Source of the DNA: Delftia acidovorans NBRC 14950
GTDB lineage: Bacteria; Pseudomonadota; Gammaproteobacteria; Burkholderiales; Burkholderiaceae_C
Reading direction: 5' to 3'
Length of the DNA stretch: 32,000 bases
Assembly: GCF_001598795.1 (NCBI RefSeq)
Contig: NZ_BCZP01000009.1
Coordinates: 180,001-212,000, forward strand
A model generated the notes under the pieces. The model was not told the origin of the DNA. It searched no databases and saw only the letters and a program-made list of their open reading frames with translations. Both the position numbers and the translations under genes were made by a program. How positions within the stretch are numbered: the first letter of the stretch is position 1; each line of letters begins with the position of its first letter. Positions 3,732 to 32,000 of the stretch are shown in pieces.

Positions 3732-3735
3732 GCGG

Positions 3736-8873: not shown

Positions 8874-9338
8874 TCAAGGGCCAGTGCGGCCCGAATCGGC
8901 CAGTGGGTTCTCGGGCTCCTTGCCTTTCAGTGCAGGGTCCTTGCGACAGGCTGAGAGAGGCCGTGCACGTGCAGAGAAGATCTGCACGATCTGCTCTTTG
9001 CCATTGTCAGTGGACACCTTCAGGCAGGCACAGCCATAACCGGCACTGCCATGACTTGTGCGCACCCAGTCACGGTCCGTGAAACGCGGCCATTCGCCGC
9101 GCGCCTGGTGGCCGCCCTGCTGGCCGATGGTCCATTCGGCCTGGCTGTCGGTCAGCGATGCATTGCCCGGGGTGGGGTTGTCGAACCAGCCACAGCGCAT
9201 GGCATTGGACGGGCCGGGGCCTGCAGCTGATGCAAGCCATGGGCCCACGCACATTACGGCGGCCAGCAGAATGCGCGGGCAGCGAAGAGTGGCCGGGAAC
9301 GGGGTGGCACTTGCTTTTGGCATTGTCTTGTCCTTCAT
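8874..9338 (-). CDS. Small exported Cys-containing protein, putative immunity for the GH19-like effector (DUF4087-like by recollection), 154 aa
   Basis: ORF 8874..9644 trimmed to MKDKTMPKASATPF... (ATG at 9338), which overlaps the effector stop (ATGA at 9335-9338). It has a signal peptide (ILLAAVMCVGPWLASAAG). It also has the motifs RCGWFDNPTPGN, WTIGQQGG and GYGCACLKV. Confidence 0.7.
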   Translation of the reverse strand: MKDKTMPKASATPFPATLRCPRILLAAVMCVGPWLASAAGPGPSNAMRCGWFDNPTPGNASLTDSQAEWTIGQQGGHQARGEWPRFTDRDWVRTSHGSAGYGCACLKVSTDNGKEQIVQIFSARARPLSACRKDPALKGKEPENPLADSGRTGP

Positions 9339-10231: not shown

Positions 10232-10271
10232 GCGTGTCGATATGGATAGGCAGTCATTGGGGCAGGCCAGA

Positions 10272-11126: not shown

Positions 11127-11696
11127 TCAGTCGTCGTAGGAGCGGCAGCCCCAGCGCACGGCGTCGGGCGCCTCGCCGGCCACATGGCCGATGACGATGC
11201 GCGGTGGCGTCTCGTCCAGGCCCTTTCTGAGCGGCATGGCGCGCGTGTACTGGGCGGGCAGCTCGCCAAAGCCTTCAAGATCCCAGCGGCTGCGCGCCTG
11301 CGGCCGGGCCTTGGTGCGCTGGACCAGCGCCTGCAGGCTGCCCGTGGCGCGCGCCGCGACAATGCTGCCGCTGCCGCCGCGCACGGTGATGGAGGACACC
11401 TGCGTGCCATCGATCTCCAGCGGCGTGGCAAACAGATAAAGCAGGTCCAGGCTTTCGCCGGGCGCGCGGTCCACCACGGTCACGCCCTGCGCGCGCAGGC
11501 GCTGGGCCAGCGCTTCGTCGCGGCCGTCGGGAAACTCGATGCGGCAATGCAGGGCGTCGGTGAACAGGGTGGTGATGTCCGCTGCCGTGGCAGGTGCGGC
11601 TTGCACCGTGGCGCAGGCCGTGCCGGCCAGCAGCAGGGTGAAGAAAGCTTTGGAACAGGCGTTCATGGCGTGGCTCAATGGGCGCATCAGGCGCAT
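11127..11696 (-). CDS. Exported protein, putative immunity (Tai-like) for the upstream amidase, 179-189 aa
   Basis: This is the C-terminal part of the composite ORF 11127..12791. Candidate starts are 11696 (MRLMRPLSHAMNACSK..., overlapping the effector stop as TGATG), 11687 and 11666 (MNACSK...). The signal peptide is AFFTLLLAGTACATVQA-AP. It lies directly 3' of the amidase gene. Confidence 0.7.
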   Translation of the reverse strand: MRLMRPLSHAMNACSKAFFTLLLAGTACATVQAAPATAADITTLFTDALHCRIEFPDGRDEALAQRLRAQGVTVVDRAPGESLDLLYLFATPLEIDGTQVSSITVRGGSGSIVAARATGSLQALVQRTKARPQARSRWDLEGFGELPAQYTRAMPLRKGLDETPPRIVIGHVAGEAPDAVRWGCRSYDD

Positions 11697-12067
11697 CAGG
11701 GATGGCGGTAGATCTTGAAAGCGGGCTTGTGGGTGCGGTAGCCGGGGCCTGCCCAGAAACCGTTCTGCTTGAAGTCCGAGATCCAGACGCTTCCGTCGAA
11801 CATCTGCATGTGGCCGGCGGGCGATGAGGTGAAGCCCTGCATCACCGCCACATCGCCCTTCTTGTAGCCACCTTCGGGCATGGCGTCGTAGCGTGTGAAG
11901 CCGGCGGCCACCAGGCTGGTGCCGTAGTCCTTGGCATCGCGCGTGCGCTGCAGTGCGATGCCGCCAGCGCCGATCGCATCGCGCACATAGCGCGCGCAGT
12001 AGCCGGCGGAACTGGCGCGGGCATTGGTCTGCAGGGTGGCGACGGCGTTGTCTACATTCCAGGGCAT
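11696..12067 (-). CDS. Small papain-like (NlpC/P60-CHAP superfamily) peptidoglycan amidase, putative T6SS effector (Tae-like), 123 aa
   Basis: ORF 11696..12067 with no signal peptide. The Cys...His pair is GYC(24)ARYVRDA and PAGH(86)MQMFDG. A GAGAGG Shine-Dalgarno lies ~8 nt upstream. An exported-protein gene follows. Confidence 0.7.
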   Translation of the reverse strand: MPWNVDNAVATLQTNARASSAGYCARYVRDAIGAGGIALQRTRDAKDYGTSLVAAGFTRYDAMPEGGYKKGDVAVMQGFTSSPAGHMQMFDGSVWISDFKQNGFWAGPGYRTHKPAFKIYRHP

Positions 12068-12089
12068 GAAAAGCCTCTCTGAGTTGGGT

Positions 12090-12164
12090 CCTGGAGGGGA
12101 AAGCTTCTCCAGGCCTGTTTCTTGTTATGGGGCCTGGCCCTGGTGCGAGCGTGTCGGCACCAGG
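12090..12164 (-). terminator. Two GC-rich stem-loops in the tssC-to-amidase intercistronic gap (possible partial terminator or mRNA-stabilising structures)
   Basis: Plus-strand pairs are cctggag(12090-12096)/ctccagg(12107-12113) and cctggtgc(12139-12146)/gcaccagg(12157-12164). No clear U-tract follows, so the function is uncertain. Confidence 0.35.
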
Positions 12165-12184: not shown

Positions 12185-13678
12185 TTACTTCGCGCCCTGC
12201 TTCACGGAAGGCAGCTTGGACACCAGGCGCAGCGACACGGTCAGGCCTTCCAGCTGGTAGTGGGGGCGCAGGAAGAACTTGGAGGTGTAGTAGCCGGGGT
12301 TGCCCTCGACTTCCTGCACCTGCACCTCGGCGGCGGCCAGGGGCTTGCGGGCCTTGGTTTCCTGCGAGGAGTTGGCCGGGTCGCCGTCCACGTAGTTCAT
12401 GATCCAGTCGTTGAGCCAGCGCTCCATGTCGGTGCGCTCGCGGAAGGAGCCGATCTTGTCGCGCACGATGCACTTGAGGTAGTGCGCGAAGCGGCAGCAG
12501 GCGAACATGTAGGGCAGGCGCGCCGACAGGTTGGCATTGGCCGTGGCGTCGGAGTCGTAGTACTCGGCGGGCTTGGCCAGCGACTGGGCGCCGATGAAGG
12601 CGGCCACGTCCGAGTTCTTGCGGTGCACCAGGGGCATGAAGCCGTTCTTGGCGAGCTCGGCCTCGCGGCGGTCGCTGATGGCGATTTCCGTGGGGCACTT
12701 CATGTCCACGCCGCCATCGTCGGTGGGGAAGGTGTGGGCCGGCAGGTTGTCCACCGCGCCGCCCGATTCCACGCCGCGGATGGAGGTGCACCAGCCGTAG
12801 TACTTGAACGAGCGGTTGATGTTGACCGCCATGGCGTAGGCCGAGTTGGCCCAGCAGTACTTGCCGTGGTCGCCGCTGTCGGTTTCTTCCTCGAAATCGA
12901 ATTCATCGACCGGGTTGGTGCGCGCGCCGTAGGGCAGGCGTGCCAGGAAGCGGGGCATGGCCAGGCCGATGTACTTGGCGTCGTCGGACTCGCGCAGGCT
13001 GCGCCAGGCGGCGTACTCGGTGTTGGTGAAGATCTTGGTCAGGTCGCGCGGGTTGGCCAGCTCCTGCCAGGATTCCATCTGCATGATGGCAGGCGCCGCG
13101 CCTGAGATGAAGGGGCAGTGGGCCGCTGCGGCCACCTTGGCCATTTCACCGAGCAGCTCCACGTCCGGCGGGCTGTGGTCGAAGTGGTAGTCGCCCACCA
13201 GGCAGCCGAAGGGCTCGCCGCCGAACTGGCCGTACTCTTCTTCGTACACCTTCTTGAAGACAGGGCTCTGGTCCCAGCCCACGCCCTTGAAGCGGCGCAT
13301 GTTGCGGTGCAGCTCCTTCTTGGAGATGTTCATGACGCGGATCTTGAGCATCTCGTCCACCTCGGTGTTGGTCACCAGGTGGTGCAGACCGCGCCAGGCG
13401 CCTTCGAGCTTCTGGTAGTCATCGTGGTGGATGATGCGGTTGATCTGCTCGGACAGCTTGCGGTCGATCTCGGCAATGATGGCCTGCACCGTCTGGTAGG
13501 CATCGTTGGACAGCGTGATCGCCGAGCCCAGGGCCTGCTGGGCCAGCGTCTGCACGGCCGCTTCCACGGCTTCGCGGGCCTGGTCGGTCTTGGGCTTGAA
13601 TTCCTTTTGCAGCAGGCTGCCGAATTCGCTGCCGGCCAGCGCCTGGGTCGATTGTTCGAGTTGGGTTGCGGTATTCAT
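12185..13678 (-). CDS. tssC: T6SS contractile sheath large subunit TssC (VipB/ImpC), 497 aa
   Basis: ORF 12185..13678 has typical TssC length and sequence (e.g. KIRVMNISK, GEPFGCLVGDY, NLSARLPYMFACCRFAHYLK). An AGGAAGG Shine-Dalgarno lies upstream, and the gene follows tssB. Confidence 0.97.
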   Translation of the reverse strand: MNTATQLEQSTQALAGSEFGSLLQKEFKPKTDQAREAVEAAVQTLAQQALGSAITLSNDAYQTVQAIIAEIDRKLSEQINRIIHHDDYQKLEGAWRGLHHLVTNTEVDEMLKIRVMNISKKELHRNMRRFKGVGWDQSPVFKKVYEEEYGQFGGEPFGCLVGDYHFDHSPPDVELLGEMAKVAAAAHCPFISGAAPAIMQMESWQELANPRDLTKIFTNTEYAAWRSLRESDDAKYIGLAMPRFLARLPYGARTNPVDEFDFEEETDSGDHGKYCWANSAYAMAVNINRSFKYYGWCTSIRGVESGGAVDNLPAHTFPTDDGGVDMKCPTEIAISDRREAELAKNGFMPLVHRKNSDVAAFIGAQSLAKPAEYYDSDATANANLSARLPYMFACCRFAHYLKCIVRDKIGSFRERTDMERWLNDWIMNYVDGDPANSSQETKARKPLAAAEVQVQEVEGNPGYYTSKFFLRPHYQLEGLTVSLRLVSKLPSVKQGAK

Positions 13679-13706
13679 GACGTGCTTGCCTTCCTGATGT
13701 GCTGCC

Positions 13707-14249
13707 TCAAGCCTCGGATGCAGGGCCCAAGGCCTGCGGGGCAGTGATGTTGGGCGCGGCGGCCAGCGACTTGAGCAGCGCAGGGTCCTTGAGCACCTTG
13801 CCGATCAGCTCTTCGGCGCCCTGCTTGCCGTCCATGTAGGAAAGCAGGTTGTGCAGCTGGGTGCGGGCCTCCAGCAGCGAGTTGAGCGCGCCCACGCGCC
13901 GCGCGATGGCGGCGGGGGAGAAGTCCTCCATGCTCTCGAAGCTCAGGTCGATGTTGAGCTTGCCCTCGCCCGTCAGCGTGTTGTCCACCTGGAACGCAAC
14001 GCGGGGCTTGATGGACTTCATGCGCGCATCGAAGTTGTCGATGTCGATTTCCAGGAACTTGCGGTCGGCGATTTCGGGCAGCGGATCGACGGGCTTGCCC
14101 GACAGATCGGCCAGCACGCCCATCACGAAGGGGATCTGCACCTTCTTTTCCGAGCCGTAGATCTCGACGTCGTACTCGATCTGCACGCGCGGCGCACGGT
14201 TGCGCGCGATGAATTTCTGACCACTCTTGCCGGTTTTGGTGAGCGACAT
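13707..14249 (-). CDS. tssB: T6SS contractile sheath small subunit TssB (VipA/ImpB), 180 aa
   Basis: ORF 13707..14249 carries the hallmark RVQIEYDVEIYGSEKKVQIPFVMGVLADLSGKP. An AAGGAA Shine-Dalgarno lies upstream. Confidence 0.97.
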   Translation of the reverse strand: MSLTKTGKSGQKFIARNRAPRVQIEYDVEIYGSEKKVQIPFVMGVLADLSGKPVDPLPEIADRKFLEIDIDNFDARMKSIKPRVAFQVDNTLTGEGKLNIDLSFESMEDFSPAAIARRVGALNSLLEARTQLHNLLSYMDGKQGAEELIGKVLKDPALLKSLAAAPNITAPQALGPASEA

Positions 14250-14372
14250 GCGGGTGTTCCTTTCAAGAAAAAAATGGGTCGCAGAAGTAAAAAGCCTGGA
14301 GTCCCGCCTTGCGGCGGACCGAAGGGCTGAGGGCGCAAGAGGCCGTGTGGAAACAGGTGGACGGGGTGGGTG

Positions 14373-14795
14373 TCATGGGGCAGCCAGCTCCTTGAAAGTG
14401 AAGTCCGGGGCCAGCAGGTCCGTGCATTCCTCGCAGTAGAGGTAGGCGATGGAGCGCTTGTTCTCCGCCGTCCCCCAGCCCGTGCCGCTGTCGATGGTCA
14501 GGTTGACCTGGCGGCCTCCCTTGAAGCGCACGACGGCACTGGCACTGCAGCTACCGGTTTCATAGGCATGCGCGTAATTGAACTGGCTGCTGGGCTTGGC
14601 GTGGCGCAGGAAGTAGCGCGCGCGCTTTTCGTCAATGCGCAGTGAATCGCAATGGATGCTGGGGTCTTCGCTTTTGGCGGTGCCGTCGCGGATCGTGATG
14701 CGCTCGATGGCGTTTGCAGGCCGTGCACCGGCATCTGCGAAGGCTGGCGTCGAGAGACCCACGCCCAGGGCCATGAAACAGCATTTGGCATTCAT
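14373..14795 (-). CDS. Small exported Cys-containing protein of unknown function, 140 aa
   Basis: ORF 14373..14795 has the signal peptide MNAKCCFMALGVGLSTPAFA-DAG and four Cys in the mature part. Its ATG overlaps the tssA stop (ATGA at 14792-14795). Third positions are G/C-rich. I recognise no family. Confidence 0.6.
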   Translation of the reverse strand: MNAKCCFMALGVGLSTPAFADAGARPANAIERITIRDGTAKSEDPSIHCDSLRIDEKRARYFLRHAKPSSQFNYAHAYETGSCSASAVVRFKGGRQVNLTIDSGTGWGTAENKRSIAYLYCEECTDLLAPDFTFKELAAP

Positions 14796-15817
14796 GTCTG
14801 CTGGTCCTGCAGGTGGGCGCCCGTGATCACTTCCACCTGGGCCAGGCTGTCGGGCGACAGCTCGCGCAGGATGTCCATGAAGCCCATGCGCATGAAGCGG
14901 GCGGCACGGCGGATGAGCAGGGGGGCGGGGTTGGAGGGCTCGGTGCGCTCCACGAAGGCGGCGATCTCCAGCAACTGGGCAATCGCCTGTTCGCGGTTGC
15001 GCGCCGGGGCGGGTGCCGAGCCTGGCGCGGGGTGGGCCACCGTGCCGCCCTCTGTGCCGGTTTGTGCGGCCGGATCGGTTTCAGCGTCCGTGTCGGCATC
15101 GCCTGTGGACTGGGGCTGCCATTGCCTGAGGGCCAGCAGCAGCTGGCGCAGGCCGTCGAGCTCGGGCTGCTGGTGGCTGGGCAGGTGCTGTTCGCAGCAG
15201 GCGCGGATCCGGTCGAGTTCCTGCAGCGCAGGGGTGACGGCCAGCAGGGTTTCGTGGCCCTCGGCATGCGCGCGGGCCGAGGCCATGCGCAATTCGTCGG
15301 CGGTCAGGTGCGGCAGGTCCTCGGGCACGTTGCCCTTGGCCATCAGTTCGGCGTCGCGCACGCTGATCTGGCCCAGCGCGCCGCGCAGGAAGTCGGCGTT
15401 GCGCAGGTCACGCACAAAGCCTGTCACGTCCGACAGGGTGCCCAGGGCATTCATGCGCATGAAGTAGTCGTCGCCATCCTCGGGCAGGGGGTGGACATGC
15501 TCCCAGTGGCGCTCCAGCAGGGCGCCGCACAGCTGCAGGCCCTGCAGCGTACCGGGCAGGCCGTGCAGGATGGTCCAGGCTCGGCACAGCAGCACGGCCA
15601 CGCGCAGGTCCTTGGTGCGCTGCATCAGGGCCGAGGCCTGGCGCTCCACATCGCGCCAGTCCGGTGGCTCGGCGGGGATGACGGTGTCGCCGAACTGCTG
15701 TTCTACCTTGCCCTGGGCAGCGCTTTCCATGGCCTGGAAATCGTTGTCATAGGTAAGGTCCGGGCCGCAGGGCGGCTCGGCGGCGGTCTCGGTCAGCAGG
15801 TCCTGGATATTGGCCAT
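14792..15817 (-). CDS. tssA: T6SS protein TssA (ImpA N-terminal domain, short form), 341 aa
   Basis: ORF 14792..15817. The N-terminus PCGPDLTYDNDFQAME...PPDWRDVERQASALMQRTKDLRVAVLLCRAW matches the ImpA_N domain signature. Confidence 0.9.
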   Translation of the reverse strand: MANIQDLLTETAAEPPCGPDLTYDNDFQAMESAAQGKVEQQFGDTVIPAEPPDWRDVERQASALMQRTKDLRVAVLLCRAWTILHGLPGTLQGLQLCGALLERHWEHVHPLPEDGDDYFMRMNALGTLSDVTGFVRDLRNADFLRGALGQISVRDAELMAKGNVPEDLPHLTADELRMASARAHAEGHETLLAVTPALQELDRIRACCEQHLPSHQQPELDGLRQLLLALRQWQPQSTGDADTDAETDPAAQTGTEGGTVAHPAPGSAPAPARNREQAIAQLLEIAAFVERTEPSNPAPLLIRRAARFMRMGFMDILRELSPDSLAQVEVITGAHLQDQQT

Positions 15818-15874: not shown

Positions 15875-16555
15875 TCAGGCGCCCTTGAACAGCCGGGTGA
15901 ACAGGCGGCGGTGCAGCACTTCGTGCTGGACCACTTCGTCAGGGGCGTGGCGCGGCGTGGCCGAGATCCACCAGACGGAGGTGGTGGAGCCCGGGCGCAT
16001 GCAGGCGCGCCAGTCCATGCGCGGCAGGCGCGCGGCGTTGCCTTGCGAGGTGCCCATGTCGAGGTCGGCCAGCAGGCTGTGGATGGAGGCGCTGCCCGGC
16101 GTGCGGCCGTCCTGCTGGAACGGCCATTGCAGGGTGGCCAGCCGCTCGTCGAGCTGCTGGGCTGACAGGGGCAGGCGCCGGGCGTCGATGAGTGCATCGC
16201 GTGCGCCGCTCAGAAAGCGTTCGATGTCCTGGTCCGACGCCGGCATGCCGGAGCTGCCGTCCACCGTGGCCATGATGGCCAGTGGAAAGAGCCGGCCGAT
16301 GCGGTCGGAGCTGGGCCCGATCACGCCCACCATGGGCTGGCCCAGGATGGAGGCGGGGCACAGGAAGAACCACAGCGGCGAGTGCACGAAGCGCGTGGAC
16401 CAGTTGTCGGCCGCATCGCTGCGCAGCTGGTCCATGCCGTTGCGCAGCCACTCGTCCCAGCGCATGGTCAGTGCGTGGGGCATGCGCCGGCCGACGAAAT
16501 CGCCCTGGCTTGGCAGCTTGCCCCACCAGGCGGCGCAGGGTCGCTGGAGGGTCAT
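15875..16555 (-). CDS. tagF: T6SS post-translational regulator TagF (ImpM/DUF2094), 226 aa
   Basis: This is the C-terminal part of composite ORF 15875..17842, with the start taken at MTLQRPCAAWWGKLPSQGDFVGRRMP (ATG at 16555, 5 nt after the tssM stop). WGKLPSQGDFV is the TagF hallmark. An alternative start at 16579 would overlap tssM. Confidence 0.85.
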   Translation of the reverse strand: MTLQRPCAAWWGKLPSQGDFVGRRMPHALTMRWDEWLRNGMDQLRSDAADNWSTRFVHSPLWFFLCPASILGQPMVGVIGPSSDRIGRLFPLAIMATVDGSSGMPASDQDIERFLSGARDALIDARRLPLSAQQLDERLATLQWPFQQDGRTPGSASIHSLLADLDMGTSQGNAARLPRMDWRACMRPGSTTSVWWISATPRHAPDEVVQHEVLHRRLFTRLFKGA

Positions 16556-23545: not shown

Positions 23546-24334
23546 TCAGTCATTGGTTTCACGCGGGCAGATCCACACCGTCAGCGCGCTGAGGTTGTCC
23601 TGGTGCGGATTGCCGCTGGATACGACGCGGCCGACCATGCGCTGTATCCATTCGTCGGGGCGCTGGCTGGCGGCCAGCAACTGCTCCATTTCCGACTCGT
23701 GCATGCCTTCCCACAGGCCGTCCGAGCACAGCAGGAAGACATCGCCGGCCTCCAGGGCCACGGCGTCGGCGCGGATGCTGGGCGGCACCTGGCCCTCGGC
23801 GCCAATGGCGCCGGCCAGCACGTTGCGGTTGGGCAGGCGGCGCGGGTCGTTCTCTTCGTACAGGCCGGCGTGCAGCAGCTGCTGGACCAGGCTGTGGTCT
23901 TCGGTGCGCAGGTGCATGCGTCCCGCGCGGAACCAGTACAGGCGCGAGTCCCCCCAGTGCGCCCACAGGGCACGGCCCTGCTCGGGATCGATGCACAGCA
24001 CCACCACGGTGGCGCTCATGTGCATGCGAGAGACCGAGGTGGACTGCTGGCCGCTGACGCGGTGCTCCGCCTGGGAAATCAGGGAGGCCAGGCTGGCGGG
24101 GGCGAACAACGGGTTCTGCCGGAAGCCATCCACCACGGCCTGCACGGTGAGCTGGGCGGCGAGCTCGCCGTGCCCGTGTCCGCCAGCGCCATCGGCCAGC
24201 GTGCAGCACAGGCCGCCGGCGCCCAGGTCCATCAGGCCCATGGCGTCTTCGTTGCTGGAGCGCCTGCCGCTGTGGGAGGCGCTGGCCACCTGGATGCTGT
24301 AGCGGTGGCCGGCTCCGTCGAGGTAGGCGATCAC
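23546..24334 (-). CDS. pppA: PP2C-family Ser/Thr phosphatase PppA (TagG), 262 aa
   Basis: ORF 23546..24460 trimmed to a GTG start at 24334 (VIAYLDGAGHRYSIQVASASH...) that overlaps the fha stop (GTGA at 24331-24334). No in-frame ATG lies near the expected N-terminus. The PP2C motifs are SGRRSSNEDA, LADGAGGHG and LLCSDGLWE. Confidence 0.88.
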   Translation of the reverse strand: MIAYLDGAGHRYSIQVASASHSGRRSSNEDAMGLMDLGAGGLCCTLADGAGGHGHGELAAQLTVQAVVDGFRQNPLFAPASLASLISQAEHRVSGQQSTSVSRMHMSATVVVLCIDPEQGRALWAHWGDSRLYWFRAGRMHLRTEDHSLVQQLLHAGLYEENDPRRLPNRNVLAGAIGAEGQVPPSIRADAVALEAGDVFLLCSDGLWEGMHESEMEQLLAASQRPDEWIQRMVGRVVSSGNPHQDNLSALTVWICPRETND

Positions 24335-26427
24335 GGCTGGCCTTTCACGGACTGCTCGGCGTTTTCGTAGGCCTCGACGAAGGTGCGGCCCGAGAAGGCC
24401 ATCAGGTCGTCCTCGGCATGGCGGCGCAGCACGTCGAAGTTGTGCTTGTAGTCGTCCCACAGCGCGGCCTTGCGGCCATTGGTCAGCAGCTTGTCCAGCA
24501 GGCCGGGGTTGGTTTCGGTGCGGCGCTCCAGTTCGGTCGGATCGAACCGGGTCAGGGCCTCGGCATAGGCGGCGCGGATGCCGGCCATCAGGGCCAGCTG
24601 GTGCACATGCAGGTCCTGGAAGGCGTCCTGCATGGCGGGCAGCGGCTTCATGAAACCCGGGAAGGTCTGGTGGACCATCTGCATGAGCACGCCCTCGGAA
24701 TTGGGCAGGAACTTGAGCGGGTTGTTGGCCCCCGTGGCAATGATGGTCACGCCAGCGCGGAACTCGCGCTTGATCTCGGAGCGCGCGGCCAGCAGGTCGA
24801 TGGTTCCCTGCACCGCAATGCGCAGGGCTTCGCCGAAAGTGCGCATGAATTCCGGTGTGACCTCGAAATGGGTCTTGGCCGGGTTCAGGCCTGCGCCCTC
24901 CATGAAGGCTGCGGCCAGTGCCTGCAGATCGGCGTTGGCGGCCGGTTGGGGCTGCACGGGAATATCGACAGGCGCGGCGGTGGAGGGCAGGGCGCCGATG
25001 GGGATGGCGGCGTCGCCCTGGCCGAGGATGCTGGAGGCCGCGGGGATATTGACGTTGACGCCTGTGTCAAGGGGGGGAGCCGAGGCAACGGCAGCCCTGG
25101 CGACGGGCGCAACATGGGCAAGACCGGACTTGAAGAGGTCCAGATCCAGTCCATTGGTGGGCAGCAGACCGTCCAGCGCGGCCGGCTCGGCGGGGATCTG
25201 GGGCACGGGCGCCGGGACAGGCGCGGCAACCGGAATGTCCTGTGCCTGCGTCGGTACCTGCGCGTGTACCTGCGTCTGTGCCCGCGCCTCTACCTGTACA
25301 GGAAGCTGCTCCTGCACTGCAGGAATCACGGTATCGATCACAGGTGGGAGTGCGGGCTGGACCGGTGCTGCCGCCTCCTGCGGTGGCACCGGCTCTGCGG
25401 GCTGTGCATGCGACTGCATGCGTGGCAGATTGAAGGCCTGGCCCAGTTCGGAACCCCGGCCCGAGGCCTGCTGCAGCGGCTGCGCATCGGGGGGCAGGCC
25501 GCCCTGGTCGAACAGCGCAAGCGGGTCGAGCTTTTGGGATTGCTCGAAGCACGAAGGCAGGCCGGTATGGGAGGCATCATGCAAGGCCTCGGTGCTCAGG
25601 CCCTTGAGCGGCAGCGTGTGGACCATGCCGTCATGGCGCTGCTGTATCAGATCGCCCGTGCCTTGCGATGGCAGGCCGGCCCAGCCTTCCTCCTGCTGCC
25701 GAGCCTGCTGGGGCGGCGGAGCAAAGGGGTCGAAATCATTGGGGATCAGCAGGGGGCGATGCTGCGGCTTGGCGGGCTGCGGCATGGCCAGTGCAGCCTG
25801 CTCGGGCGGGATGGCGCTCTCGATCGAAGGCACGGCAGGGGTCTGGATGGCATCCAGGCTCAGTGCCGTCAGGCCTTCCCAGGGATCGGCGATGCCGGGG
25901 GCGGCGGCAGGCAATACGTCTGCCAGCGGCGCTGCCTCTGCCGGCGGCGCTGCTTCCGGCAGCGGGGGCTGGGAGGCGACGGGAGGCGGGACGATCTGGG
26001 GCTGCGGGGCGGCTGTGACGGGTGGGGCCGCTGCCTGCGTTGCTTGCGCGGCTTGTGTGGCTTGCGCGTTTTGCATTGCAGCCGAAGGCGGTGCCTCGAA
26101 AGGCGTGCCCGGCGCCACGGCGGCCAGGGTGTAGGCGCCGATACGGATGCGCGCACCCAGGGGCAGGCCCACTTCCTGGCCCGAACGCACGGGCTGCTCT
26201 GCCACCCAGATGGGATCACGCTCGCTCAGGTTCGCAACAAAGGCTCCCTCGGAATCCAGCCTGACCATGGCGTGCACGCGCGCGACGGAAGCGTCCGGGT
26301 CCGAGATGATGAGCTTGTTCTGGCCACTGCGTCCGATCGTGCCGCCGGCCATGCCGAATACGGCATGCCAGTGGCGATCGACCGGAACGCCATCGTGGTC
26401 CACGACCCTGAGTTCGATTTTGTCCAT
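24331..26427 (-). CDS. tagH: FHA-domain T6SS protein (Fha1/TagH), 698 aa
   Basis: ORF 24331..26427 has an N-terminal FHA domain (GTIGRSGQNKLIISDPDASVARVHAMV...GAFVANLSERDPIWV). A ~350 aa Pro/Ala/Gln-rich low-complexity centre follows. The C-terminal domain is conserved and ImpI/VasC-like. Confidence 0.9.
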   Translation of the reverse strand: MDKIELRVVDHDGVPVDRHWHAVFGMAGGTIGRSGQNKLIISDPDASVARVHAMVRLDSEGAFVANLSERDPIWVAEQPVRSGQEVGLPLGARIRIGAYTLAAVAPGTPFEAPPSAAMQNAQATQAAQATQAAAPPVTAAPQPQIVPPPVASQPPLPEAAPPAEAAPLADVLPAAAPGIADPWEGLTALSLDAIQTPAVPSIESAIPPEQAALAMPQPAKPQHRPLLIPNDFDPFAPPPQQARQQEEGWAGLPSQGTGDLIQQRHDGMVHTLPLKGLSTEALHDASHTGLPSCFEQSQKLDPLALFDQGGLPPDAQPLQQASGRGSELGQAFNLPRMQSHAQPAEPVPPQEAAAPVQPALPPVIDTVIPAVQEQLPVQVEARAQTQVHAQVPTQAQDIPVAAPVPAPVPQIPAEPAALDGLLPTNGLDLDLFKSGLAHVAPVARAAVASAPPLDTGVNVNIPAASSILGQGDAAIPIGALPSTAAPVDIPVQPQPAANADLQALAAAFMEGAGLNPAKTHFEVTPEFMRTFGEALRIAVQGTIDLLAARSEIKREFRAGVTIIATGANNPLKFLPNSEGVLMQMVHQTFPGFMKPLPAMQDAFQDLHVHQLALMAGIRAAYAEALTRFDPTELERRTETNPGLLDKLLTNGRKAALWDDYKHNFDVLRRHAEDDLMAFSGRTFVEAYENAEQSVKGQP

Positions 26428-26469: not shown

Positions 26470-26964
26470 TCAGGAGGCTTTGCGCGCGGGCGCAGGGCGC
26501 TTGTTGCGCAGCGCGGCACGGGCGTTGTTGAACTCCCGGCCCCAGATGGGATGGCCCTTTTCGGCCTCGGTCAGCTGGAAGGTGGGGTCCAGGGCCAGGG
26601 CCATGTCGAAGTGCTGACGGCAGGGCTTGCGGCGGCCTTCCACGCAGTGGCTGAAGGCGATGTACTTCAGCGCCTTGACCTGGCTGCTCATGGGCAGTTC
26701 CTGTGCGGTGGACAGGGGCGTCAGCGCCGTGATGGCGTCCTCATAGCGGCCGTCCACATAGAGCTGGATGGCTTCGACCAGCTCCTGCTCCTTGATCACC
26801 ACGGGGTCCACGGGCTTGACGGGCTCCGGAGGCTGGACCACGGTCGGGGCCGGCTCGGGCTCCACGGGCTTTGGCGTGGTTTCACACGCGGCCAGGCCGA
26901 AGGCAACGGCCAGGGCAAGGGTCAGGCGCTGGATGGAGTGAGGAATATTCAGGGTCATGGACAT
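26470..26964 (-). CDS. Lipoprotein with a TPR-like helical domain, T6SS-associated (TagQ/TssQ-like role possible, family uncertain), 164 aa
   Basis: ORF 26470..26964 has the lipobox LAAC in MSMTLNIPHSIQRLTLALAVAFGLAAC, followed by a Pro-rich linker. The helical domain contains KYIAFSHCVEGRRKPCRQHFDMALALDPTFQL...HPIWG, which is paralogous to the N-terminal half of the next gene. Confidence 0.75.
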   Translation of the reverse strand: MSMTLNIPHSIQRLTLALAVAFGLAACETTPKPVEPEPAPTVVQPPEPVKPVDPVVIKEQELVEAIQLYVDGRYEDAITALTPLSTAQELPMSSQVKALKYIAFSHCVEGRRKPCRQHFDMALALDPTFQLTEAEKGHPIWGREFNNARAALRNKRPAPARKAS

Positions 26965-26966
26965 GG

Positions 26967-27755
26967 TCAGCGGGCATCAAAGTCATGGGAAAGGGTCACC
27001 GACTGGCCGTCGGTGATGCGGATCACCTGCCGATAGCTCTCGAAGCCGGGATTGCGCAGCTCCACCGTGTGGGAGCCTGGCGCCAGCTTGAGCAGCACGA
27101 CGGGAGGGGTGACGCCGGACGGCTTGCCGTTGATCAGCACATTCGCCCAGGGGCTGACCCTCAGGCGCAGGTTGTGATCTGTCCGTGGCGTCTCAGACCG
27201 TGCGGCCAGCGCGGCGGAGCGCGCTGGAGCAAGGCCGGGTGTCAGGGCGGTGATCGAGGTGATCACGCGGCTGTTCAGTGCAAAGCCGCCGGCCGTGGGT
27301 GCCGCAGGCGCCGTGCGCAGCCGCTGCGCGGAAGGGCAGCGCTGGATCCAGCGGTCCTGGGCGCGGCTGTAGGCGTCCCGCCACGGTGTGCCCGTGGTTT
27401 CGTAGGCTTGCAGTGCAAAGCCCGGGTGTGCGGAGAACGCGGAGTCGAAGGCCGCCTCGCAGCGCGCCCATTCCTTGTGCGTGCAATAGGTGTAGGCCAG
27501 GTACTTGTGGGCGGAGGCCCGCTCCATGGGATCGGCCAGCCCGCCAAACAGCGCCGCCTGCAGCGCACGCTCGGCCTGGGCCAGGTCGCGCGCCTCGAAC
27601 AGCGCAATGCCCTGCGCCAGCTGCGGGCGTCCTGCCGAGCCGGTTTGGGTGGGCGCTGCCTCTTCGCATGCCGCCTGGGAATGCGCCAGGCAGGGCAGGC
27701 CGAGCACTGCAGTGCACAGCATCCATCGCCAGCGGTGGTTCATCAGTCGAGCCAT
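26967..27755 (-). CDS. Exported protein: TPR-like domain (paralog of the lipoprotein) plus a C-terminal PEGA-like beta domain, 262 aa
   Basis: ORF 26967..27755 has a signal peptide (WRWMLCTAVLGLPCLAHSQA). KYLAYTYCTHKEWARCEAAFDSAFSAHPGFAL...TPWRD aligns with the lipoprotein. The C-terminus LRLRVSPWANVLINGKPSGVTP..LAPGSHTVELRNPGFESYRQVIRITDGQSVTL looks like a PEGA domain. Confidence 0.75.
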   Translation of the reverse strand: MARLMNHRWRWMLCTAVLGLPCLAHSQAACEEAAPTQTGSAGRPQLAQGIALFEARDLAQAERALQAALFGGLADPMERASAHKYLAYTYCTHKEWARCEAAFDSAFSAHPGFALQAYETTGTPWRDAYSRAQDRWIQRCPSAQRLRTAPAAPTAGGFALNSRVITSITALTPGLAPARSAALAARSETPRTDHNLRLRVSPWANVLINGKPSGVTPPVVLLKLAPGSHTVELRNPGFESYRQVIRITDGQSVTLSHDFDAR

Positions 27756-27764
27756 GGGCCGCGC

Positions 27765-29873
27765 TCATTCGAAAAGATGGTTCACGGTCACCGACTCGCC
27801 CTTGGTGACCGTGATGGTCTTGGTCACCGTGGAGGCCGCACCCGGGTTGCTGATGTCGATGCGGTACTCGCCCTCTGGAAGCTCCATCTGGGTCAGCGGC
27901 GGGCTGGTCCGCGCAGGGGCGCGGTTCACGGAGACATAGCCCCAGGGCACGACCCGGAACACCACCTTGCCCGTGGCCGCTGCGGGCTTGACGGGGCGGG
28001 CCTCGGTCTTGGACGGCTCGGTGGGCAACGGCTCGGACCCGGTGGCCACCGTGACGGGGACGACTGGCGTGCTCTGCTCGGGCTGCGAAGGGGCAATCTC
28101 GGGCACCGCGGCCTGCTGCTCGGGCGAGGTCATCGGCTGCACCTGCTCCGTGGAGGCCAGCGAGGCCTCGTTGAGCAATTGCTTGAGCAGCGCCTGGGCC
28201 TCGGTGCGGTGCTGTCCTTCGGGGAAGCTGTCCAGGTAGTCCTGCAGGCGGGCCAGGCTGGACTGGCTTTGCGCCTGCTGCCAGGCCAGGCTGTCGCGTG
28301 CTGCCAGGGTCTTGGCGCGTGCCTGGTCCTGGGAATGGTCGTACCACAGCACGCCGCCGCCCGCGATGGCAGCCAGCACCAGGGCGCCGATGGCCAACGG
28401 TACGGCCATGCTGCTGCGCCTGGCCTTGGGCGCAGCCTGGGCCCCCGCAGCTGGAGGCCGGGCAGCCGGAGGCTTGGCCTGGACGGCCGGCGCTGCGGCG
28501 GGCTGCTCGGGAACGGGTGCAGGTGGTGAAGCCGGGACCGGAGCCTGAACCGTAGCCTGAGGCGCCGGCATGCCTTGCAGTGCCTGGTCGATGTCGATGA
28601 ACGGCCCGTTGCCCAGGCCCATCGGGTCGGCTGCAGAGGCCTGGGGCGCAGATGGGGGTGCCATCTGAGGCGTGGCCATGGCAGCAGGTGTGCTGGGGGC
28701 CGGTGATGCCGGGGCCACGGGTGGAACCGTTGCAACAGGCGGCATGGGCAGCACAGGTGCTACAGGTGCTGCAGGTGCCACAGGTGCCACCGGCATGACC
28801 GTCGCCACGGGCGCAACCTGTGGGGTGGGTGCGGGAACGTAGGTTTCCGTGATCGGCAGGAAACGGGGTGCCTGCGCGGATGCCGACTCGCTGGCCATGG
28901 CGGCCTGAACGGCCGCAGGCGTCGTGATCGGGATGTAGATGGGGCTGGCGCTGGGCTCCACAGGCGCAGGCGCCGCCCGGCTTTCGGCAGACAGGCCCAG
29001 CAGGCTGCGCAGTTCGGCAATCGACTGGGGCCGGTCCTGCGGGCGCACGGCCAGGGCTTTTTGCATGCCCTGCAGGAAGGCGTCGGAGTAGCCGGGAACC
29101 TGCTCGGAAGTCAGCGGCTGCATGGGGTCCGTGACCATGCGCGCCACCGAGGTGGCAGGAGTGCGGCCCGTGGCGGCCTGGTGAATGAGGGCGCCGACCT
29201 GGTAGATGTCCGTCCACGCGCCCTGGGGCATGGCGCCGTCGTCCACGTACTGCTCGATGGGCGCAAAACCGGGCTTGAGCACCATGGTCAGCGCCTGGGT
29301 CATGTCGCCGATGATGCGGCGCGCGGCGCCGAAATCCAGCAGCACGGGGCTGCCATCGCGCTGCACGAAGATGTTGTCCGGCGCGATATCGCGGTGGAAG
29401 CAGTCCTGTGCATGCAGGACCTCGAGCACATCGAGCAGCGGGGCCAGCAGGGTGCTGAGCTGGGCCTGGTCGATGCGGCCCGACGATGCCTGCAGCACGC
29501 GGCCCAGCGTCTGGCCCTCGTAGTGGCGCATCACCATGTAGGCCGTGCCGCCGGCTTCGAAGAATCGGTAGACATGCACCAGGGTGGGGTGCGAGAAGCG
29601 CGCCAGCAGGCGGGCCTCGTTGATGAAGCTGCGCAGCCCGGCGTCGAACGCGCCACGGTGCTGCGAGCGCACATGCACCTGATGGGAGCTTTGCCGCCCG
29701 GCCAGGGCCGAAGGCATGTACTCCTTGATCGCGACCTCGCGGTCCAGCGAGAGGTCACGGGCCTTGTAGACGATGCCGAAACCGCCTTCGCCGATGACAT
29801 CGAGCACGCGGTATTCGCCAATCTGGACACCTGCCGGAAGGCAGTTGGTCGAACATGCTGCTTCGCTAACCAT
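27765..29873 (-). CDS. ppkA: Transmembrane Hanks-type Ser/Thr kinase PpkA (TagE) with a periplasmic PEGA-like C-terminal domain, 702 aa
   Basis: ORF 27765..30020 trimmed to Met50 (ATG at 29873, MVSEAACSTNCLPAGVQIGEYRVLDVIGEGGFG). The kinase motifs are GEGGFGIVYKA, VAIKEY, HRDIAPDNIF, DFGAAR and FAPIEQ. A Pro/Ala-rich linker leads to a TM helix (VPLAIGALVLAAIAGGGVLWY). The C-terminus is VVFRVVPWGYVSVNRAP...LPEGEYRIDISNPG...VTKGESVTV. The start is uncertain, and Met15 at 29978 is possible. Confidence 0.9.
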   Translation of the reverse strand: MVSEAACSTNCLPAGVQIGEYRVLDVIGEGGFGIVYKARDLSLDREVAIKEYMPSALAGRQSSHQVHVRSQHRGAFDAGLRSFINEARLLARFSHPTLVHVYRFFEAGGTAYMVMRHYEGQTLGRVLQASSGRIDQAQLSTLLAPLLDVLEVLHAQDCFHRDIAPDNIFVQRDGSPVLLDFGAARRIIGDMTQALTMVLKPGFAPIEQYVDDGAMPQGAWTDIYQVGALIHQAATGRTPATSVARMVTDPMQPLTSEQVPGYSDAFLQGMQKALAVRPQDRPQSIAELRSLLGLSAESRAAPAPVEPSASPIYIPITTPAAVQAAMASESASAQAPRFLPITETYVPAPTPQVAPVATVMPVAPVAPAAPVAPVLPMPPVATVPPVAPASPAPSTPAAMATPQMAPPSAPQASAADPMGLGNGPFIDIDQALQGMPAPQATVQAPVPASPPAPVPEQPAAAPAVQAKPPAARPPAAGAQAAPKARRSSMAVPLAIGALVLAAIAGGGVLWYDHSQDQARAKTLAARDSLAWQQAQSQSSLARLQDYLDSFPEGQHRTEAQALLKQLLNEASLASTEQVQPMTSPEQQAAVPEIAPSQPEQSTPVVPVTVATGSEPLPTEPSKTEARPVKPAAATGKVVFRVVPWGYVSVNRAPARTSPPLTQMELPEGEYRIDISNPGAASTVTKTITVTKGESVTVNHLFE

Positions 29874-29939: not shown

Positions 29940-30436
29940 AACCTGTTCGAGGCCATTGGACAAGGAGAAAGCCGGCATCACACCGGCAATCTGTCTCTGT
30001 AAACCGTTGGTTTTCCTCAATCAGCCTATTGTCTGAAGCCAGGGGCCAAAGACGAGCGTCATGGATTCGTCATGAATACAAGATCGTATTTCAATCGGAC
30101 TCCGAATGCGGCGTGAGTGTAGCTTGAGTTCCGCAAAAAGCCATGACACGAATCGAATGGATATGAGGTGGATACATTTTTTTTCAGATGTATCCGCCGT
30201 AACAATTCAGTCTGCTCAATTGTTTGTATTTTGCCGGCCTTATCCACTATCATCGCGGCTCCAACAAAGGAGGGCGGTTCACGACAGTGAGGATTGCAGG
30301 CGATTGTCAATACATTCCTTGACCATCCAGGGTATGCGCCGCACTGATCTGAATCACGTGTTAAGTGAATCGGTTTCGTGCGCTCTACCCGAGAGTGGTT
30401 TCCCCTTTGTTCGCGTGTGAACTATCCGATGCAATC

Positions 30437-30452
30437 AGGCTATTGGGTTGCA
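30437..30452 (+). promoter_or_regulatory. Candidate sigma54 (-24/-12) promoter facing hcp
   Basis: The plus strand reads aGGCta-ttggg-TTGCA (GG at 30438-30439, GC at 30450-30451), so the spacing is correct. The -12 element is good and the -24 element is degenerate. The predicted start would be ~25 nt upstream of the hcp ATG. Confidence 0.3.
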
Positions 30453-30488
30453 TGCGAACGTTTAATCCATTAGTTCGAGAGGTGTGCA

Positions 30489-30971
30489 ATGTCCGTTGAT
30501 ATGTTCATGAAGGTCGAGGGCGCCAGTGGCGAGTCCCAGGATTCCAACCACAAGGGCTGGACCGACATCGACTCCTTCACCTGGGGTGCTACCCAGCCCA
30601 ACACCATGTCCAGCGGCGGTGGTGCCGGTGCCGGCAAGGTGAGCTTCCATGACCTGAACGTCATCGCCAAGGTGGACAAGTGCTACCCCGCCGTGCTCAA
30701 GCACTGCGCCACGGGCAAGCACCTGGGCCAGGTCGACATCTCGCTGTGCAAGGCCGGCGGCTCGCAGATCGAGTTCACCAAGATCACCCTGACCGACGTC
30801 ATGGTGACGAACGTGACCGTCAGCGGCGCCAACTCCTCTGACACCGTGACCGTGAACTACTCGTTCCAGGCTGCCAAGGTCAAGACCCAGTACTGGGAAC
30901 AGACCAACCAGGGCGGCAAGGGCGCCGAGAGCCAGATGGGCTTCAACATCAAGGAAAACCGCGAAGCCTGA
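30489..30971 (+). CDS. hcp: T6SS inner tube protein Hcp (TssD), 160 aa
   Basis: ORF 30489..30971. MSVDMFMKVEGASGESQDSNHKGWTDIDSFTWG is the hallmark Hcp N-terminus. A GAGAGG Shine-Dalgarno lies ~7 nt upstream, and codon bias is strong. Confidence 0.97.
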   Translation: MSVDMFMKVEGASGESQDSNHKGWTDIDSFTWGATQPNTMSSGGGAGAGKVSFHDLNVIAKVDKCYPAVLKHCATGKHLGQVDISLCKAGGSQIEFTKITLTDVMVTNVTVSGANSSDTVTVNYSFQAAKVKTQYWEQTNQGGKGAESQMGFNIKENREA

Positions 30972-30979
30972 GCTTCCTC

Positions 30980-31029
30980 CCGCAGCTGTGCTGCTGCGGC
31001 AACCCGCGTCGGACTCGTCTGGCGCGGGT
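30980..31029 (+). terminator. Two GC-rich hairpins immediately after the hcp stop
   Basis: The pairs are ccgcagc(30980-30986)/gctgcgg(30993-30999) and acccgcg(31002-31008)/cgcgggt(31023-31029). No U-tract follows, so these may be stabilising structures rather than terminators. Confidence 0.4.
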
Positions 31030-31054
31030 GTTGCCGTGGACAGGCGGGAATATG

Positions 31055-31080
31055 GCCTCCATCTATCGATGGAGGCTTTT
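31055..31080 (+). terminator. Rho-independent terminator downstream of hcp
   Basis: A perfect 9-bp stem gcctccatc/gatggaggc with a tatc loop is followed by tttt (31077-31080). Confidence 0.75.
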
Positions 31081-31232
31081 CAGTATGGAAAGTCGAAATT
31101 GGGCTGTTGAAGGAATATCGGAGAGACGTGCCTTGAGGCCGCGTGGGTAACCGCGTGCCTGGCTGGTTTTTGTGTCATTTTTTTGACGTGGGCCAGCTTT
31201 CCATTCCTGTCAAAAGCTGAATGTCGTTAGGC

Positions 31233-31249
31233 TTGTCAATCTTTGACAA
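31233..31249. promoter_or_regulatory. Perfect palindrome TTGTCAA-tct-TTGACAA (candidate operator)
   Basis: Read directly. A second inverted pair, ttttgac (31181-31187) and gtcaaaa (31209-31215), uses the same TTGAC/GTCAA core. The GT-N-AC symmetry is compatible with GntR-type operators, and a GntR gene starts ~540 bp downstream. Confidence 0.35.
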
Positions 31250-31785
31250 ACACAAAAACCCATGGCCGCGGGCATGGGGAATCGACTTGCTCGCTGCACT
31301 ATCAATGTGCAGAAAATTTCTGATAAAAATGGATTGCCGTGGATATGCGCAGGATTACCGCGCGTGGGTTCCTGTGTCTATTGATCAGGCACATTGAATG
31401 CCTGGTGCCGGGGCCTGCGAACCGTTGTGGTGCGTTTGGCCCGTACTGCGGCGAGTGGCGGAGCATACACGAACATCGGACGTTGTCGAGAATATTTTTG
31501 CCGGTCCAATTATTAAAACGCAATTCGTTTCTTTAATAAATTCCACTGCCAACTTGTGTACAAGAAAGAGTACTAAATGCGTGAATGGACCATTGCCCAT
31601 TGCCGGCGTGCAAACCAGTCAGAGAGATTGCAGCAGCAATCGGCGTATACCCTGTCACCGCCCGCAAATCTGCCCGGTGCCGCAGGCATGGCTTCGCTCT
31701 TTTCCACCGCCTTGAGCCGGGTCTTGGCTGGCCTTGGCTGTCGCCAACGGCAGGGGCGGTGTTCTCCAACCGGCATGGCAGTCGC

Positions 31786-32000
31786 ATGAGCATCGCGGTT
31801 GCCTCCCCGCCCGTGTGCGAGACGCGCCAGGGGCCTGCAAGCAGCGCGCACTCGCTGGCCGCGCAGATCTACGCTTGCCTGAAGAACGACATCTTCGACT
31901 TCCGCCTGCTGCCCGGCGACCGCTTCAGCGAGGGCGAAATCGCCACGCGCATGCAGGTCAGCCGCACGCCTGTGCGCCAGGCGCTGTTCTGGTTGCAGCG
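31786..32000 (+). CDS. Partial CDS (5' end, runs off the right edge): GntR-family transcriptional regulator
   Basis: Open-ended, so absent from the ORF track. My translation from the ATG at 31786 reads MSIAVASPPVCETRQGPASSAHSLAAQIYACLKNDIFDFRLLPGDRFSEGEIATRMQVSRTPVRQALFWLQ. The segment L.PG.R.SE.EIA..M.VSRTPVR.AL is the GntR winged-HTH signature. The start is uncertain, because in-frame alternatives exist (GTG at 31759, ATG at 31585). Confidence 0.65.
   Translation, partial: MSIAVASPPVCETRQGPASSAHSLAAQIYACLKNDIFDFRLLPGDRFSEGEIATRMQVSRTPVRQALFWLQ

Follow-up and report, generated by a model that had tools for sequence, protein, structure and literature searches.

The 32,000-nucleotide (nt) stretch analysed here (the window; Delftia acidovorans NBRC 14950, contig NZ_BCZP01000009.1, positions 180,001 to 212,000 of the forward strand) holds a complete type VI secretion system (T6SS) locus. 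At positions 26470-29873, between fha and the divergent hcp, lie exactly three minus-strand open reading frames (ORFs; 27765-29873, 26967-27755 and 26470-26964), which encode the kinase PpkA, an exported protein in which a TssQ-like domain is fused to a PEGA domain (the middle protein) and the lipoprotein TssQ. This module stands in place of TagQRST, and we lean towards the view that, through a tether of the TssW/TssQ type, it links the outer membrane to the kinase end of the threonine-phosphorylation pathway of the T6SS. Because the intergenic gaps measure 9 nt, then 2 nt, with 42 nt from tssQ to fha, the three module genes are very likely co-transcribed. Their features are as follows (aa, amino acids; TM, transmembrane; TPR, tetratricopeptide repeat; AF2, AlphaFold2 model).

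27765-29873, minus strand: ppkA, Hanks Ser/Thr kinase, 702 aa from the ATG at 29873 (Pfam Pkinase, 103.7 bits, residues 21-283)
28410-28973, minus strand: cytoplasmic Pro/Ala-rich low-complexity linker of PpkA, about residues 301-488 (Ala plus Pro, 97 of 188 residues)
28341-28409, minus strand: single TM helix of PpkA, MAVPLAIGALVLAAIAGGGVLWY, about residues 489-511 (hydrophobicity scan, AF2 helix)
28149-28340, minus strand: periplasmic helical unit of PpkA, motif W..A....L..YL..FP.G..R..A (AF2 helices, pLDDT about 90)
27768-27974, minus strand: C-terminal PEGA-type beta-sandwich of PpkA, ending in a conserved H-x-F-E (six strands in AF2)
26967-27755, minus strand: middle protein, exported TssQ-like (TPR)–linker–PEGA fusion, 262 aa (Pfam PEGA; TssQ_fam below threshold; AF2)
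Middle protein, about residues 1-26: signal peptide
27306-27638, minus strand: TPR-like all-alpha domain of the middle protein, about residues 40-150 (AF2 pLDDT>90)
Middle protein, residues 151-191: linker, disordered (AF2 pLDDT <50 for 152-190)
26970-27182, minus strand: PEGA domain of the middle protein, residues 192-262 (AF2 pLDDT>90, seven-strand sandwich)
26470-26964, minus strand: tssQ, probable tssW ortholog, putative outer-membrane lipoprotein, 164 aa (NCBIfam NF038027)
TssQ, lipobox LAAC with Cys27: LALAVAFGLAAC (in 29 homologs, Cys27 is invariant and Ala26 nearly so)
TssQ, residues 28-55: Pro-rich tether
26506-26799, minus strand: TPR-like domain of TssQ, residues 56-153
TssQ, after the TPR-like domain: basic C-terminal tail

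PpkA of Pseudomonas aeruginosa has a periplasmic vWA domain; in the Delftia kinase a PEGA-type domain stands in its place. No Pfam VWA match to the latter was obtained even at E<=1, and its residues 659-699 score 20.2 bits against Pfam PEGA (PF08308), just below the gathering score of 20.8, with precomputed PF08308 matches present in many homologs. The assignment also draws on the PEGA domain of the middle protein, to which that of PpkA is 36% identical (BLASTP E = 4e-10; hhalign probability 99.7%, E = 4.5e-26), and on the AF2 model of the ectodomain, in which the TM helix continues into a confident helical unit, followed by about 45 disordered residues and then by the beta-sandwich. According to a hydrophobicity scan, the TM helix occupies the same position in every PpkA ortholog. 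The helical unit is confined to T6SS-linked PpkA (alignment A2), being missing from the rows of the non-T6SS serine/threonine kinases with a PEGA domain (STK-PEGA; L015-L023). The H-x-F-E tail was also considered as an EEVD-like free peptide for a TPR groove and rejected: in the model of the middle protein the corresponding His is part of the last beta-strand.

The middle protein passes the Pfam PEGA threshold (35.4 bits at residues 204-258, compared with a gathering threshold of 20.8), and scores 53.9 bits against NCBIfam TssQ_fam (NF038027), under the cut-off of 65. Its N-terminal half aligns with the lipoprotein (BLASTP E = 2e-6; hhalign 98.5%, E = 3.7e-15, 98 columns), and a Cys pair is invariant in both families, C91/C99 in that of the middle protein (alignment A1) and C107/C115 among TssQ homologs. 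On these sequence grounds we regard it as a divergent TssQ paralog with an added PEGA domain and not, by the curated rule, as a member of TssQ_fam. These results bear out much of an earlier sequence-only reading of the window, which had proposed a PEGA-type and not a vWA ectodomain on PpkA, an exported protein encoded by the next gene and ending in a paralogous PEGA domain, and paralogy of the N-terminal half of that protein to the following lipoprotein, with two conserved Cys: profile searches matched both PEGA and TssQ_fam, and both paralogies were found. Inspection of the sequence revealed no convincing lipobox in the Delftia middle protein, which is therefore probably soluble. Lipobox-like MTAC/LAAC/LTAC motifs are found in the signal peptide of a sub-clade of fusion homologs (P0008, P0011, P0013; alignment A1), and the fusion protein may differ between lineages in being lipid-anchored or soluble. 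The fusion is rare: a word-indexed search gave about 20 clusters at 90% identity, and an exhaustive profile search of 1.84 billion representatives found the full TssQ-like plus PEGA architecture in about 14 clusters at 50% identity, roughly six of them close and eight distant.

The tssQ product passes TssQ_fam with 119.2 bits (E = 8.8e-35, cut-off 65), and RefSeq already names Delftia orthologs 'TssQ family T6SS-associated lipoprotein'. The TPR part of TssQ has a basic pI of 9.0. When the TssQ and PEGA families were searched against the PDB by sequence, no meaningful match came up, and Foldseek gave only weak generic matches (E >= 3.5e-3, none at E<=0.001). These included three-repeat TPR modules (CTPR3, MamA, CHIP) and carboxypeptidase regulatory domains, which agree with the Pfam/NCBIfam reading and add no function. 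In publications the name TssQ mostly stands for an outer-membrane protein of Bacteroidota T6SSiii or for a tss gene of Proteus; both were treated as unrelated to NF038027 and set apart by context alone.

To place the module in a wider context, we compared T6SS-type loci from a genome scan (L001-L014), loci reached via three TssQ proteins (L025-L030) and a separate genome with an identical ClpV (L039). The order ppkA(PEGA)–tssQ-like-PEGA–tssQ–fha–pppA–tssJKLM, with hcp divergent from ppkA, is kept in the 14 loci of the genome scan, whose genera include Delftia, Comamonas, Acidovorax, Paracidovorax, Rhizobacter, Ideonella, Curvibacter and Rhodoferax; the closest, a Delftia locus (L001), is 97% identical at the protein level. 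The six further loci have hcp, the kinase, the PEGA protein, TssQ and Fha in the same order. The ppkA gene is conserved beside hcp and fha in L001-L014 and L025-L030, and the middle gene is present in 14/14 loci from the scan and in 6/6 loci found via the three TssQ proteins, which belong to Acidovorax/Pseudorhodoferax. Among the main minus-strand ORFs of the window, scanned with Pfam or NCBIfam models (not always with both), no match to TagR (FGE-sulfatase/COG1262), TagS (COG4591 permease) or TagT (COG1136 ATPase) was found, as the earlier reading had held. The same is true of about 10 kb beyond clpV in L039, which encode Peptidase_S41, unknown proteins, VgrG and DUF2169; roughly 6 kb beyond hcp in L001 likewise showed no TagR/S/T, by inspection of ORFs without a profile scan.

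The lipoprotein has a probable counterpart that has been studied experimentally. TssW (Aave_1467) of Acidovorax citrulli AAC00-1, the product of a gene lying between ppkA and fha, was characterised by Pei et al. (mBio 2025, PMC12607579; what follows rests on parts of that article). It is located in the outer membrane as an evenly distributed anchor and sets the positions of PpkA/T6SS foci. PpkA and TssM were bound by TssW in pull-downs, and in two-hybrid assays it interacted with the periplasmic domains of PpkA, TssM and TssJ. Upon deletion of tssW, T6SS foci become fewer and polar and Hcp secretion is lowered; overexpression of PpkA restores secretion but not localisation, which the authors read as inefficient activation of PpkA without TssW. 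PpkA interacts with Fha independently of TssW, the A. citrulli T6SS fires constitutively, and the stoichiometry of TssW, PpkA and Fha tunes the number of foci. D. acidovorans is listed there among the species with tssW next to ppkA and fha. In the parts of the article covered here, no signal or ligand of TssW is reported; in those of the main text, the words PEGA, TPR and tetratricopeptide are absent and 'lipoprotein' is used for TagQ only, with no mention of the middle TssQ-like–PEGA protein, of the PEGA nature of the PpkA ectodomain or of an occurrence outside T6SS loci.

The same article reports that A. citrulli PpkA phosphorylates Fha, that it forms condensates, and that PpkA and Fha undergo liquid-liquid phase separation (PMC12607579, in part). 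The Pro/Ala-rich linker of Delftia PpkA fits condensate formation by its homolog. Very long Pro/Ala/Gln-rich low-complexity stretches are present in both PpkA (28410-28973) and Fha (24900-26100), which fits the phase separation of the A. citrulli homologs. The kinase domain of Delftia PpkA keeps the HRD and DFG motifs. Its catalytic loop reads HRDIAPDN (residues 157-164, window 29382-29405), as in all T6SS-linked PpkA orthologs (L001-L014), Ala replacing the usual catalytic-loop Lys of Ser/Thr kinases, whereas the non-T6SS STK-PEGA relatives retain HRDIKPAN. Given the reported phosphorylation of Fha by the A. citrulli enzyme, this variant is active.

Aave_1467 is known here through synteny and through short termini derived from the published primers. 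The mature TssW construct starts TGC CAG ACG CCC CCT GC, i.e. C-Q-T-P-P-A, with the lipobox Cys first, and the authors' TssJ construct likewise starts at its lipid-modified Cys (PMC12607579, in part). TssQ orthologs of Acidovorax/Paracidovorax read …LLSAC-QTPPEPP… (L010), end in …RKAP or …RKAS and sit directly upstream of fha; TssW, according to the primers, ends in …KKAP, and its stop lies 20 nt ahead of the fha ATG (primer KI3; the corresponding distance in Delftia is 42 nt). A. citrulli PpkA ends in …ESVVLTHKFE, which is the PEGA tail of L011/L012. Based on the same position upstream of fha and on the matching mature N-terminus and C-terminal tail, we take TssW and the TssQ lipoprotein to be the same protein, a view held with good though incomplete confidence. 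Aave_1467 was not among the 83 TssQ matches or their cluster members, an exact A. citrulli 41-mer had no match in metagenome contigs, and blastn-short searches of the published primers against Paracidovorax loci were uninformative. Two claims of the sequence-only reading have to be given up at this point. The module can no longer be called uncharacterised, its lipoprotein being a TssQ_fam member and a positional ortholog of the published TssW; nor do the available parts of the TssW study describe an envelope-sensing input, as they show a positional anchor and a PpkA-Fha interaction independent of TssW. In our analysis a tether agrees better with the evidence than a stress sensor does.

The general gene order hcp, divergent from ppkA – tssW – fha – pppA – tssJ is shared between A. 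citrulli AAC00-1 and Delftia, as are the PpkA tail …VLTHKFE and, in the lipoprotein, the mature start at Cys (CQTPPA in TssW) and the basic C-terminus. The difference is that Delftia adds the TssQ-like–PEGA gene between ppkA and tssQ. In AAC00-1 the locus tags of hcp, ppkA, tssW, fha, pppA and tssJ are consecutive (1465-1470), with only one tag between ppkA and fha, and the A. citrulli/avenae group did not turn up in the species-level genome scan for the middle protein; AAC00-1 is therefore probably without the middle gene. Primer KI1 translates as RDDLRVM, matching the start of the PpkA PEGA domain (…ILRVMPWG), which does not settle whether the middle gene is present in A. citrulli.

The PEGA domain of PpkA is not confined to secretion loci. 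Searching with a profile of the PpkA ectodomain gave 310 proteins, and the matches listed were mostly Ser/Thr kinases of about 450 aa and class III adenylate-cyclase-like proteins of 350-450 aa, ending in the same PEGA subtype (…IEIRN…I[KR]HKF[EQ]). Eight loci (L031-L038) were sampled via the PEGA side only. In all eight, the next gene downstream of the STK-PEGA or cyclase-PEGA gene encodes a TssQ_fam protein (106-202 bits; single or tandem domains), and T6SS genes are missing within 4-5 kb. Every one of these TssQ proteins starts with a signal peptide, after which comes Cys, and each PEGA enzyme has a single TM helix. Members of NF038027 are not T6SS-associated in 8/8 sampled PEGA-enzyme loci. 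Coming from the other side, ten loci (L015-L024) were found via TssQ-domain patterns. No T6SS structural gene or TagH-type Fha is present in the stretch covered by them, and a PEGA-bearing kinase or cyclase-like neighbour is encoded in 9/10; the remaining one, a 2.8-kb fragment (L024), gave no PEGA match. In L016, L017 and L020 the kinase is tail-anchored, without an ectodomain, and the PEGA domain is on the neighbouring cyclase-like protein.

Two arrangements recur outside T6SS loci, namely FHA–PP2C divergent from STK-PEGA–TssQ, and metG–cyclase-PEGA–TssQ(×2)–tail-anchored STK. What is constant across these cassettes is the pair of TssQ and PEGA; in the non-T6SS STK-PEGA and cyclase-PEGA proteins the ectodomain consists of a linker and PEGA, with no stalk. 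From the adjacency of the genes and from the fusion of both domains in one polypeptide, a Rosetta-stone argument, we infer that the TPR domain of TssQ and the PEGA domain form a conserved binding pair. The metG cassette was seen in L016, L017, L020, L033, L037 and L038, with tandem TssQ domains in one lipoprotein in L037 and L038.

These observations suggest a scenario in which PpkA would sit in the inner membrane, with its kinase domain and Pro/Ala-rich linker in the cytoplasm, and its helical stalk and flexible linker would hold the PEGA beta-sandwich out in the periplasm. TssQ, lipid-anchored in the outer membrane, would dangle its three-repeat TPR-like, disulfide-containing domain into the periplasm on the Pro-rich tether. 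By orthology with A. citrulli, where this has been shown, TssQ may bind the periplasmic parts of PpkA, TssM and TssJ, and this binding would spread the sites of PpkA–Fha assembly along the cell body. Phosphorylation of Fha by PpkA would then trigger T6SS assembly efficiently, with PppA and TagF opposing it. As comparative genomics suggests, the contact would be made by the TPR-like domain of TssQ with the PEGA domain. The TssQ–PEGA pair could then represent an older and more general pairing in Betaproteobacteria, one of outer-membrane lipoproteins with two kinds of inner-membrane enzyme that cross the membrane once, Ser/Thr kinases and class III adenylate cyclases, and the T6SS locus appears to have co-opted an older FHA/PP2C/STK-PEGA/TssQ signalling cassette. 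More speculatively, the middle protein could be a soluble daisy-chain adaptor, its PEGA domain docking TssQ and its TPR-like domain docking the PEGA domain of PpkA; such an adaptor would lengthen or multimerise the bridge between the outer and the inner membrane. In its broadest form this scenario holds that TssQ and PEGA are a dedicated trans-envelope docking pair across Betaproteobacteria, that the T6SS of Comamonadaceae captured a pre-existing cassette, and that the fusion is a Rosetta-stone adaptor extending or polymerising the tether. We regard this wider proposal as possible but somewhat doubtful. If it is true, 'T6SS-associated' misnames TssQ, and outer-membrane lipoproteins would exert a general, unstudied control of cytoplasmic phosphorylation and cAMP signalling.

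Several points weigh against a TssQ tether that docks on PEGA. The element of PpkA bound by TssW/TssQ could be the T6SS-kinase-specific helical stalk instead of PEGA, and the adjacency of genes shows functional linkage, not physical binding. The AF2 model of the middle protein (pTM 0.53), in which the linker is disordered, does not point to a fixed contact between the TPR-like and PEGA domains of one molecule. Since AAC00-1 has one locus tag between ppkA and fha, the middle protein appears dispensable for a working TssW-PpkA-Fha axis. Finally, the equation of TssW with TssQ rests on synteny and short primer-derived termini.

The three proteins might instead form a true envelope sensor of membrane damage, contact or a ligand, an analog of TagQRST or RtkS that activates PpkA via dimerisation. 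They occupy the same position in the pathway as TagQR of P. aeruginosa and RtkS of Serratia, both of which act on the periplasmic domain of PpkA, and in other T6SSs assembly that depends on contact is mediated by TslA and TagM1, periplasmic or lipoproteins with TPRs. The drop in Hcp secretion upon tssW deletion and its rescue by PpkA, with the authors' reading of inefficient PpkA activation (PMC12607579, in part), could be taken in the same sense. However, the parts of that study covered here describe a constitutively firing system, a TssW that is evenly spread and has its chief effect on localisation, and a PpkA-Fha interaction independent of TssW, and only TPR-like and PEGA domains were detected in the module, with no recognisable ligand-binding or enzymatic domain. 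We therefore consider a sensor unlikely.

For the middle protein, a role opposite to that of an adaptor can be envisaged, namely a periplasmic competitor or buffer whose PEGA domain occupies TssQ, or whose TPR-like domain occupies the PEGA domain of PpkA, limiting tethers and firing. That it duplicates both putative partner domains, is probably soluble for want of a convincing lipobox and is apparently missing from the highly active A. citrulli system would all be compatible with such a role, as would the tuning of focus number by stoichiometry (PMC12607579, in part). Yet, A. citrulli apart, all Comamonadaceae-type loci sampled strictly conserve its gene within the operon, the gaps of 9 and 2 nt speak for co-expression, as would be more usual for a structural partner, and some homologs have the lipobox-like LAAC/LTAC; a competitor is distinctly unlikely in our estimate. 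It is also conceivable that PEGA binds an envelope polymer (peptidoglycan or a glycan) as a spacer or anchor, with TssQ contacting only the PpkA stalk and TssJM, and that the adjacency of TssQ and PEGA reflects a shared role in the envelope. The PEGA/CarboxypepD_reg-like fold is a generic beta-sandwich with carboxypeptidase regulatory domains as its nearest structures, and the extra conserved helical unit of the T6SS kinases could be the TssQ site. But the stalk-less non-T6SS PEGA enzymes still adjoin TssQ in 8/8 loci, and in L016, L017 and L020 the kinase has no ectodomain while PEGA is on the adjacent cyclase-like protein, which makes polymer binding very unlikely as the explanation.

The tether proposed here resembles TagQRST–PpkA of the P. 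aeruginosa H1-T6SS by role: in both, a lipoprotein of the outer membrane, together with a partner in the periplasm, acts on PpkA through its periplasmic domain and upstream of Fha, PppA and TagF. It differs from it in that no TagR (FGE-sulfatase-like) or TagS/T ABC module was found at the Delftia locus, with hcp sitting where tagQRST lie in the H1-T6SS, and in that the A. citrulli data, as far as covered here, point to positioning and not to damage sensing. In Serratia marcescens, the periplasmic protein RtkS, which is specific to its lineage and whose gene adjoins fha and pppA, binds the periplasmic domain of PpkA and raises Fha phosphorylation (Ostrowski et al. 2018, PMC6082577). It stabilises the kinase instead of providing an outer-membrane anchor. 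TslA of Acinetobacter and TagM1 of B. thailandensis are TPR-containing periplasmic/lipoproteins localising T6SS assembly (Lin et al. 2022, PMC9251886). By description they share with TssQ a signal peptide or lipoprotein nature, a TPR-like fold and control of the assembly site, whereas their genes, which belong to i4b systems without PpkA, PppA and Fha, lie upstream of tssBC, and they have no PEGA partner.

Where and when the T6SS assembles is an active question, and the input to PpkA seems to be lineage-specific (TagQRST, RtkS, TssW). A literature search returned no paper pairing 'PEGA domain' with 'type VI secretion', and a 2026 review of T6SS accessory factors contains no TssW, TssQ, PEGA or Acidovorax. 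In the literature found, three things are undescribed: that the ectodomain of PpkA is of the PEGA type, the fusion of a TssQ-like with a PEGA domain, and the coupling of TssQ and PEGA to non-T6SS kinases and adenylate cyclases. What is added to the TssW system is a reading at the level of domains, that of a TPR-like lipoprotein and a PEGA ectodomain; an adaptor-like fusion present in most Comamonadaceae-type loci sampled and apparently missing in the A. citrulli model strain; and a link to wider kinase/adenylate-cyclase cassettes unrelated to secretion. Should the TPR–PEGA contact be real, it would offer a simple mechanism coupling the state or position of the outer membrane to inner-membrane signalling enzymes, as well as parts for engineering T6SS positioning.

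The remainder of the locus reads, on the minus strand from the left, clpV, tssG/tssF, tssE, a DUF4087 gene with a GH19-like gene, tagJ, tssC/tssB/tssA, tagF, tssM/tssL/tssK/tssJ, pppA, fha and the three-gene module. The genes referred to above and others of note are the following.

377-3118, minus strand: clpV, ORF of the T6SS cluster
8310-8864, minus strand: tssE, ORF of the T6SS cluster
15875-16530, minus strand: tagF, post-translational repressor of the threonine-phosphorylation switch (Pfam TagF_N, 131 bits)
23546-24334, minus strand: pppA, PP2C phosphatase (Pfam PP2C_2, 61 bits)
24331-26427, minus strand: fha (tagH), FHA scaffold and PpkA substrate (Pfam FHA and T6SS_FHA_C, 193 bits; TIGR03354, 203.8 bits)
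30489-30971, plus strand: hcp, divergent from ppkA (100% identical to its match in L001; orthologs match Pfam T6SS_HCP)

The PpkA/PppA/Fha/TagF switch recognised in the earlier reading is thus present, with Pkinase, PP2C_2, T6SS_FHA_C and TagF_N matches inside the T6SS cluster. The listed ORF of pppA reaches 24460, its likely start being at 24334, where it overlaps the fha stop codon; pppA orthologs are 247-262 aa long and overlap the fha stop too.

Directly beyond hcp (window 30000-32000), GC content falls from about 0.68 to 0.55-0.57, and the corresponding flank of L001 (positions 1-6000, outward of hcp) holds an integrase-like gene and further low-GC ORFs, so that the T6SS locus seems to border on mobile or variable DNA; the window contains no tRNA. 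Between tagJ and tssE (window 8874-10450, minus strand), a GH19 (chitinase class I/lysozyme-like) protein is encoded beside the DUF4087 protein, and the two look like an embedded pair of cell-wall-degrading effector and immunity protein. Conserved ORFs without a Pfam or NCBIfam match lie at window 3168-5200 and about 11127-12150 on the minus strand (L039 1052-1992 and 7919-9951); between tssG and clpV, the gene calls in L039 give proteins of 279, 110 and 187 aa; between tssC and tagJ, they give proteins of 123 and 189 aa. Past the left end of the window, downstream of clpV, L039 encodes a 759-aa protein with PDZ and Peptidase_S41 domains (12739-15018), a C-terminal processing protease. Its gene, an unusual companion of a T6SS cluster, overlaps the clpV stop and is followed by two unknown genes and then vgrG.

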